A stretch of 64,000 nucleotides of DNA from Porphyromonas sp. (GCA_041854825.1 JBHACZ010000024.1:2050-66049); one strand, 5' to 3'. Shown: positions 40,895 through 41,735, numbered from the stretch's first letter. Notes: generated by a model not told the origin, from the letters alone. Program-made: numbers and translations.

Positions 40895-40980
40895 TGTATA
40901 CCAAGGTTTGGAATATGTATACCAAGCCCTGGTATTTATATACCAAGCTTTGGTTTATATATCCCAAGCCTTGGTATACA
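40895..40980. repeat. Family D array (D1): 4 x 21-bp palindromic units
   Basis: CCAAG cores at 40901, 40922, 40943, 40964; unit about TATACCAAGCTTTGGTATATA; 11-bp perfect terminal inversion TGTATACCAAG / CTTGGTATACA. Confidence 0.95.
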
Positions 40981-41043
40981 CATGAGATAAAGCTATTCGG
41001 AGCTTTGCCCCTCAGAGGGCTTGACATCGGGAGCTAGACGTTG

Positions 41044-41051
41044 TATCTTTG
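41044..41051 (+). promoter_or_regulatory. -7 promoter element for HU-like gene
   Basis: TATCTTTG between array D1 and ATG 41115. Confidence 0.6.
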
Positions 41052-41114
41052 CACGCAGAGCGTCATCCCTATAGCGAATGACACTCCGACGTTAAACCTA
41101 AATAACACACCAGT

Positions 41115-41735
41115 ATGGCACATTACATGATGCAAGAGATGCCCGACATGGAGGGCAATGGCAAGCGCACGAAGTATCCCAAAATGCTCATCCATGAGCA
41201 GATCGACCTCAGACGTCTCGCCGAAGAGATCGCAGACGGCACGACCTTCGGCATCGGCGAAATCGAGGGAATCATCTGCACCCTCACGCACAAGGTCGCC
41301 AGCTACATGGCATGGGGTTACTCCGTGCGCATCAATGGCCTGGGAGCATTCACGCCCTCCCTGGGTCTCAAACCTGGCGTCGAGCGAGAGACTTCGGATG
41401 GTAAGCGGCGCAATGCGGTGAGCATCGCAGTGGATCGGATCAACTTCCGCGCAGACAGAGAGTTCGTCCGCCAGACGGCAAAGCAATGCAAGCTCGAGCG
41501 AACAGAGCGAAAGCAATACACTTCGCCGAGGACAGGACAAAGCGAACGGCTTACGCTAGCCATCCAGCACATTCAGGCGCACGGCAGCATGACCCTCTCC
41601 GAATACGTAGGACTGACGGGGCTCTCCCGTACCAGTGGGGCGCGAGAGCTCATCAGGCTACGCGATGCGGGCAAACTCTCCACCCGCGGGAGCGGTACAC
41701 ACAGCGCCTATATCCTGCCCGAGACAGGGGCATGA
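41115..41735 (+). CDS. Bacteroidota HU/IHF-like DNA-binding protein with C-terminal winged-helix domain
   Basis: [36 protein letters not shown] (HU-like fold); [24 protein letters not shown]...Y (wHTH). Confidence 0.82.

Follow-up and report, generated by a model that had tools for sequence, protein, structure and literature searches.

Phased palindromic arrays upstream of winged-helix HU-HIG genes in a Porphyromonas genome and in other Bacteroidales

Dispersed intergenic palindromic mosaics, often located at operon ends, include the enterobacterial REP/BIME elements with their IHF sites (RIB/RIP) and the Correia elements of Neisseria. There, a single housekeeping IHF is shared by all elements, and its gene does not adjoin a master copy. 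Phased tandem sites upstream of the gene for the protein that binds them are known from ParR/parC, omega/heptads and AspA, where they are associated with autoregulation and with a nucleoprotein assembly on one face of the DNA. These latter systems are plasmid-borne, have one locus per replicon and use proteins of RHH or ArsR-type folds.

The BrickBuilt minisatellite/MITE of Porphyromonas gingivalis has a 23-nt unit and a copy number of 1-22.8 (Klein et al. 2015, PMC4596501). Table 1 of that study lists one element directly 5' of the HU-family gene PGN_0872 (PF00216), on which the text is silent. The element 5' of the HU-family gene is also the shortest BrickBuilt element of P. gingivalis (PMC4596501). 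The HU-HIG proteins were named by Burroughs, Kaur, Zhang and Aravind in 2017 (PMC5499826) and are limited to Bacteroidota. They show lineage-specific expansion and rapid divergence and lack conserved operon partners or neighbourhoods. The same study judged it unlikely that they are sequence-specific transcription factors and proposed a role against invasive DNA (PMC5499826).

Here we describe an array of phased palindromes, D1, and the HU-HIG gene downstream of it in a 64,000-nucleotide stretch of Porphyromonas sp. DNA (GCA_041854825.1 JBHACZ010000024.1:2050-66049), hereafter called the window. The assembly holding the window is 2.0 Mb in size, with 54% GC and 102 contigs, and is 91% complete. 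Like REP/BIME and Correia elements, the D elements to which D1 belongs are dispersed palindromic mosaics with a proposed site for an HU/IHF-fold protein. In contrast to them, array families here have a paralogue of their own that carries the array at its promoter, and no RAYT/Y1 gene accompanies them in the assembly. The differences from ParR/parC, omega/heptads and AspA lie in the combination of an HU with a winged-helix (wHTH) fold, the chromosomal location, the tens of loci and the many apparently orthogonal paralogues.

D and BrickBuilt are alike in organisation, with spacerless tandem units of twenty-odd nt, conserved flanks with inverted ends, a strictly intergenic location and tens of copies per roughly 2-Mb Porphyromonas-type genome. 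The D unit is 21 nt long, palindromic and present in ~4 copies between flanks of about 35 bp, whereas the 23-nt BrickBuilt unit varies from 1 to 22.8 copies and has leaders and tails that can reach about 300 nt. The BrickBuilt paper did not propose a reader protein. In contrast to the absence of conserved genomic associations in the HU-HIG study (PMC5499826), all members of the winged-helix type in this genome, and most elsewhere, have a private phased palindrome array at the promoter, and matching arrays are dispersed. A literature search found no publication linking HU-HIG proteins to such arrays. The association of HU-wHTH genes with arrays is undescribed in the published literature, and it gives this enigmatic family a testable function.

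The D1 locus and the protein encoded next to it

Array D1 occupies positions 40897-40978, counted from the first nucleotide of the window, and consists of four 21-bp units. It was identified by TRF (period 21, copies 3.9, consensus TATACCAAGCTTTGGTATATA), by reading of the sequence, by its membership of array family 1 and by a half-site profile. Each unit combines the dyad (R)TAkmCCAA-N3-TTGGkmTA(Y) with a spacer that is AT-rich and likewise palindromic. Flank comparison and ssDNA folding extended the whole element to 40880-40995, with degenerate inverted flanks, CATCAGCTG before the units and CACATGAGAT after them. These flanks resemble the CATCTCTGT and ACAGAGATG termini of dispersed D elements, and degenerate versions of the inner D flanks are also kept in D1. 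Folding of the whole element gives a single long hairpin or cruciform (ssDNA -25.7 kcal/mol, z = -7.6).

A promoter and terminator scan placed the promoter of the HU-wHTH gene at 41021-41051 on the plus strand. It consists of TTGACA-17-TATCTT (41021-41049) with the Bacteroidota-type -7 box TATCTTTG (TAnnTTTG) at 41044-41051. The end of D1 is 65 bp from the -7 box and 137 bp from the ATG at 41115. The gene (41115-41735, plus strand) encodes 206 aa and reaches its stop at 41735, and the scan found an intrinsic terminator hairpin with a 15-bp stem directly after it (41750-41785, plus strand). The gene's own promoter upstream and the terminator directly after its stop indicate that it is monocistronic. 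The intergenic region holding D1 is common to the HU-wHTH gene and a divergent TerD-domain gene (40053-40715, minus strand; PF02342, E=4.5e-26). Sequence reading gave a candidate -7 box for the latter, again TATCTTTG, on the minus strand at 40788-40795. An earlier note, made from the sequence of the window, had described D1 as a 21-bp-period array of CCAA/TTGG dyads upstream both of a monocistronic HU/winged-helix gene and of a divergent terD, and every element of this description was confirmed.

The 206-aa protein matched the HU-HIG profile PF18291 with 73 bits (cut-off 26.2) and TIGR01201 HU_rel with 94.8 bits (cut-off 68.6). The canonical HU/IHF profile PF00216 scored 15 bits on it, under the gathering cut-off of 22.4; canonical HU is encoded separately in the genome, by two genes (87 and 90 aa). 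The AF2 model (mean pLDDT 84) predicted an HU fold and, C-terminal to it, a wHTH of three helices and a beta-wing. In the HU-HIG domain (residues 1-130, 41115-41504, plus strand; Pfam/NCBIfam and AF2), an N-terminal beta-hairpin (strands 2-9 and 19-25) precedes the HU helices 32-42 and 47-66, with a later strand at 127-129. A linker (residues 131-141) with a short disordered part at 134-139 leads to the predicted wHTH (residues 142-200, 41538-41714, plus strand), which comprises helices 142-156, 161-168 and 172-184 and the beta-wing 189-200. The recognition helix was assigned to about residues 172-184. Foldseek matches were to HU proteins and to the HU-HIG-Ig structure 4fmr, and for the wHTH part to DIP2311-C, ArsR/SmtB, MarR and AspA. 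Pfam gave weak matches only to the wHTH (DIP2311-like_C, E=0.02). The arm residues R99, N100, A101 and S103 and the helix residues E178 and L179 are invariant, and the start of the recognition helix is variable. Together, the profiles and the predicted fold features place the protein in the HU-HIG family (PF18291), in its wHTH subclade.

Arrays at HU-wHTH genes in this genome and across the order

The genome has 17 PF18291 hits, comprising nine HU-wHTH proteins (205-215 aa), six HU-HIG proteins with Gly/Pro-rich tails ending in EEDGF-like residues, and the two canonical HU proteins. All nine HU-wHTH genes were found to have an upstream dyad array of ~4 units with a 21/22-bp period, the units being mostly different from gene to gene. 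These arrays end 95-244 bp before the ATG and 34-88 bp before the TAnnTTTG box. An array within 250 bp upstream was present at 11 of the 17 HU-HIG hits compared to 107 of 1467 other ORFs (7.3%; Fisher p=4e-9), and 9/9 against a conservative background of 33% gave p=5e-5. An all-against-all comparison of the 204 genes with an array within 350 bp upstream revealed HU-HIG as the sole large paralogue group.

Three of the paralogues (C72, C73 and C50a) are 60-72% identical to the gene of the D1 locus (C24). The four genes keep homologous promoters (GCTTGAC...TAnnTTTG) and leaders, and their array cores differ, being either CCAA-N3-TTGG with varied flanks and spacers or CCAC-N3-GTGG. The homology of promoters and leaders beside different arrays indicates that the array was duplicated along with the gene and diverged later. 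D1 lies upstream of the -35, and in other lineages the array abuts the promoter or may follow it. Since the position of the array relative to the promoter varies, no single regulatory logic is evident.

The HU-HIG genes of the glycine-tail type have arrays of their own. Upstream arrays of 22-24 bp, mostly 23 bp, precede G000:C7:2420-2974, C8:19611-19988 and C77:24910-25545, and relatives (L080, L082) have them likewise. Examples of the units are CCAAATGTACATATGAGCAGAT x3 and AACCCTATAGGGTTTT x3. In this genome these arrays belong to families 2 and 8, both of 23 bp, and the tails of the array-bearing proteins end in EEDGF, GGNL or similar. The period thus seems to track the C-terminal module, with 21/22 bp for the wHTH and mostly 23 bp for the Gly-tail. 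A further Gly-tail gene, G000:C39:34683-35228, has three CCTATnGCTAG units in 21-22-bp phase at about -230 to -165. TRF recorded no array at this gene despite its phased units, so that TRF counts underestimate the association. At three Gly-tail promoters, C11 (about 240-270), C7 (about 2330-2360) and C83 (about 2480-2510), a single TACCATTAAGTGT(C)AC motif similar to the 23-bp unit of family 5, TACCTATTGAAGTGTC, immediately precedes the -7 box.

Within the genus, a profile of the paralogues found HU-wHTH genes in 4 of 15 other genomes, with 1-2 copies each, and the nine copies here therefore represent a lineage-specific expansion. A homologous-protein search with C24 returned 5 proteins, four of them its own paralogues, so that there are essentially no close homologues outside this genome. 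Of the homologues within the genus, five in all, one is preceded by a clear 21-bp array and three by 2-4 units phased at 21-22 bp. At the fifth, L004 (G007:C5, 3720-4280), a 68-bp x 8.3 minisatellite lies between the HU-wHTH gene and a 21-bp array, with further 44-bp and 66-bp repeats upstream.

A survey of 151 genomes from 143 genera of the order added 8 genomes with the HU-wHTH family, and 32 loci were examined. In 17 of these loci TRF detected a 21/22-bp array or a 44-bp double unit at a distance of 30-150 bp before the ATG, and phased dyads could be seen by eye in most of the others. The relatives' units always hold a dyad and vary by paralogue (e.g. TTTCAAGCTTTGAAA, AAATCACTnAGTGATTT, CTTCAGnnnnCTGAAG and GTCGAACAGCTGTTTGAC). 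To quantify this, we used a periodicity statistic, defined as the best three-unit self-match at a lag of 20-23 within the 320 bp upstream, on 36 homologues from nine other Bacteroidales genomes representing several families of the order. A periodicity of at least 0.65 was reached by 22 of the 36 relatives compared to 4 of 62 control flanks (p=6e-9), and one of at least 0.75 by 14 of 36 compared to 0 of 62; overall, relatives and controls differed with a Mann-Whitney p=1e-12. The enrichment of arrays at HU-wHTH genes, which the earlier note had put forward as a test, therefore came out positive both here (9/9) and order-wide (22/36 vs 4/62). An array at the gene's own promoter that is conserved in relatives is a feature shared with autoregulated regulators that have operator arrays. 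The wider HU-HIG family is large, a profile search yielding about 1,060 clusters at 50% identity (E<=1e-10).

The second test, covariation between the array and the recognition helix, gave a weak outcome that is confounded by phylogeny. Unit similarity correlated with wHTH identity at rho=0.16 (Mantel, p=0.009) and with HU-domain identity at rho=0.10 (p=0.06), in both cases with kinship not corrected. Among nine close paralogues of the g19 genus, the most variable wHTH positions are the two residues that start the recognition helix. The pair TS occurs with ATTCC..GGAAT (two genes) and PM with TTTCA..TGAAA (three genes), and TV, PA and PV each occur with a unique dyad. This pairing is compatible with a model in which the wHTH would be the reading head; related genes share both traits. 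A simple two-residue code, which fits the g19 genes, was rejected because C73 and C50a share SRTSAVREL and have different dyads.

Array families and dispersed copies

TRF detected 267 arrays with a period of 20-24 in the genome, which clustered into six large families and many small ones. The largest is family 0 (22 bp, AAAAACATCGATGTTTTT type, 54 arrays), followed by family 1, which is D (21 bp, CCAA-N3-TTGG, 44 arrays), family 2 (23 bp, GACTTA..TAAGTC, 30 arrays), family 3 (21 bp, CACGTCGTG, 28 arrays), family 4 (22 bp, TATAGTACTATA, 26 arrays) and family 5, the family A of the earlier note (23 bp, 22 arrays). The HU-wHTH genes map onto these and onto smaller families. C24, C72 and C73 have D arrays upstream, as sub-types, while C50b has family 3 and C60 family 4. 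The arrays of C50a, C47 and C65 belong to family 6 (4 copies), family 11 (2 copies) and family 13 (2 copies), respectively, and C13 has families 7, 15 and 16. According to this map, every multi-copy family whose period is purely 21 bp is represented before an HU-wHTH gene. The 23-bp families 2 and 8 precede the glycine-tail HU-HIG genes at C7, C8 and C77.

No HU-wHTH partner was found in the genome for family 0 (22 bp, 54 arrays) or for family 5/A (23 bp, 22 arrays). No copy of family 0 (e.g. G000:C13:1468-1563) adjoins an HU-HIG gene, and a search for its reader among the array-adjacent paralogue groups gave only two thioredoxin-like proteins, which were rejected. The expectation that each array family has its own paralogue was thus borne out in part: the units are mostly distinct, but C24, C72 and C73 all stand on D, and families 0 and A are partnerless. 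A relative of family 0 was observed in a same-genus genome without HU-wHTH genes (G008:C1, L039-L058), which has about 15 family-0-like 22-bp arrays per 400 kb. The presence of 22-bp arrays in such a genome indicates that phased arrays as a class are broader than HU-wHTH and do not need the protein.

The D elements have a uniform build. Four dyads are the modal number (25 of 44 arrays; range 1-5), the half-site is (R)TAkmCCAA, and of the 111 distances between successive dyads in the 44 D arrays, 107 measure exactly 21 bp. A family of 44 arrays with such rigid spacing is not a chance repeat. The flanks are inverted, with the consensus ...CCGAnTTAnGGTAAnCCATCTCTAT and the inverted flank consensus AAATCnCCGAnTTAnGGTAAnCCATCTCTAT, and the other large array families have inverted flanks of their own. 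The outer D flanks CCCCGACTTAGGTAA and TTACCTAAGTCGGGG (e.g. window 50775-50795; G000:C37:7695-7725) resemble half of the family-2 unit GACTTAnnnTAAGTC, which suggests a mosaic, BIME-like composition of the elements. Two D elements, G000:C57:30278-30351 and C98:17913-17986, are identical including their flanks, reflecting recent duplication or assembly redundancy.

The window holds one dispersed copy, D2 (50684-50774; TRF and sequence), with the structure CTCTGTC[dyads at 21 bp]GACAGAGATG. D2 is flanked by an 868-aa gene on the minus strand and a 153-aa ORF on the plus strand and folds as a long hairpin (z = -7.0). D2 had been taken to mark a divergent promoter. The element is indeed present there, but its service to a regulated promoter is doubtful, as arrays were found in 33% of the divergent intergenic regions of at least 100 bp and in 25% each of the tandem and convergent ones, figures that rest on crude ORF-based gene calls, and the elements are MITE-like. 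The non-HU copies of the small families lie mostly in convergent intergenic regions (5/8). A classical regulon was rejected on these grounds, arrays being as frequent in convergent as in tandem regions and the non-HU copies of small families being mostly convergent. A REPIN-RAYT reading was also rejected, because the Y1/RAYT transposase (PF01797) gave no hit in this assembly (91% complete). The D copies, bounded by inverted flanks and found in any context, are best read as MITE-type copies of a promoter array, not as the operators of a regulon.

This MITE-like behaviour raises the question of whether the proteins serve to contain the elements. The protein would bind arrays to neutralise MITE-like selfish elements, by silencing their promoters or by blocking cruciform extrusion or spread; the paralogues would diversify in an arms race, and the copy at the gene's own promoter would be a sensor scaling the protein to the element load. 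We consider this unlikely, although several observations speak for it. Dispersed arrays have inverted termini, they are found between convergent genes as well as in intergenic regions that bear promoters, their expansions are recent and species-specific, and interception of invasive DNA by HU-HIG proteins was proposed by Burroughs et al. (PMC5499826). The BrickBuilt study also reports promoter activity on those elements (PMC4596501). However, in many genomes the promoters of HU-wHTH genes carry the array while few dispersed copies, or none, could be detected. Hence the promoter array seems to be ancestral and its spread secondary. Moreover, no transposase is linked to the arrays, the assembly lacking a Y1/RAYT hit, and the constant size of four dyads and the exact phasing suggest that copies are kept functional instead of decaying.

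The distribution of arrays between species bears on a second alternative, in which the arrays are structural DNA or RNA elements (cruciforms, REP-like mRNA-stabilising hairpins or bidirectional terminators) or sites of another factor. The HU-wHTH protein would then not be the reader, its genes being merely regulated by the arrays or tolerant of them. The folding of D1 and D2 as long hairpins (z about -7), the array in a quarter of convergent intergenic regions and the 22-bp arrays in a genome without HU-wHTH are consistent with this. It is nevertheless improbable in our view, as it leaves unexplained the paralogue-specific units with constant period and number, the location of one copy at an HU-wHTH gene in 2-copy families, and the joint gain or loss of an array family and its matching paralogue between congeneric species.

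The last point rests on three comparisons. A search with the D element yielded 46 hits in this genome, whereas the 40 other genomes of the genus that were searched gave 0-1 weak hits apiece, suggesting that within the genus D arrays are confined to the present species. Of the congeners G032 and G164, G032 has a paralogue that G164 lacks, and the array type of this paralogue is present at 6-7 strong loci in G032, with only weak partial hits in G164; conversely, the array type of the paralogues restricted to G164 is present at about 9 strong loci in that genome, with 1 weaker and 1 weak hit in G032. In another genus, G111 has a single HU-wHTH gene and about 30 dispersed full-length copies of exactly its array. 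It also has two further 22-bp families, which are unlike the promoters of its other HU-HIG genes, where 23-bp arrays of their own are found. Collectively, these sequence comparisons support the view that array families follow the presence of their paralogue between species.

An iteron- or centromere-like reading, in which array and DNA-binding gene form the origin or partition cassette of a (formerly) mobile element, recalls the likeness of 21-23-bp tandem direct repeats beside a winged-helix gene to iterons/Rep or parC/ParR and the AspA centromere-binding protein among the Foldseek wHTH matches, but is very improbable given the chromosomal housekeeping context (terD, phosphoribosyltransferase, permease), in which none of the neighbours is a Rep, ParA, helicase or integrase gene, the dozens of copies per chromosome, the palindromic rather than directional unit and the monocistronic gene.

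A candidate reader of phased arrays

The pairing of genes and arrays argues well for the HU-wHTH protein as the cognate reader of the array before its own gene. Most likely, HU-wHTH proteins recognise particular repeat families, further members of which are dispersed over the genome. The relation between protein and array is not strictly one-to-one, and it is not that of a classical regulon. The explanation that fits best overall, and that we hold to be probable, is that the protein of the D1 locus is a dimeric reader of D units that feeds back on its own promoter and also occupies the dispersed D elements. Its components, namely binding, stoichiometry, bending, autoregulation and the function of the dispersed sites, are what we infer from the anatomy and distribution described above.

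In this model the 206-aa protein would be a sequence-specific dimeric DNA binder, with the HU-type fold providing the dimer and probably also DNA bending or a minor-groove contact. The two C-terminal winged helices of the dimer would each read half of the about 19-bp palindrome TAkmCCAA-N3-TTGGkmTA in every 21-bp unit. Four units, placed exactly two helical turns apart, would bring four dimers onto one face of about 84 bp of DNA and could yield a cooperative, bent nucleoprotein block. Located upstream of the gene's own promoter, such a block may feed back on expression of the protein with either sign. The 206-aa protein would also occupy roughly 40 dispersed D elements, either jointly with its close paralogue C72 or in parallel to it. 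The location of dispersed D at operon boundaries of every type makes an architectural, insulating or roadblock role likelier than that of a classical operator.

A broader proposal, which we offer tentatively and regard as rather doubtful, is that HU-HIG paralogues and arrays together form a set of mutually orthogonal address-and-reader pairs. Each pair would assemble four-dimer particles (~84 bp) both at the paralogue's promoter and on tens of MITE-borne copies marking operon boundaries, giving a programmable, fast-turnover layer of insulators, roadblocks or nucleoid anchors. Arrays of the BrickBuilt type might then be of the same kind, with glycine-tail HU-HIG proteins as their readers.

HU-HIG proteins are specific to Bacteroidota and have had no assigned function, and the sole dedicated study argued against sequence specificity. 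The pairing of gene and array provides a concrete candidate DNA target for each paralogue, through which the role of the expansions becomes testable. The 21-23-bp intergenic minisatellites of Porphyromonas, such as BrickBuilt, which have gone unexplained, likewise gain a candidate reader. Orthogonal pairs of protein and operator could serve as genetic parts for Bacteroidota. Together, these results suggest an undescribed way to organise operon boundaries or to contain MITEs in a major group of host-associated bacteria.
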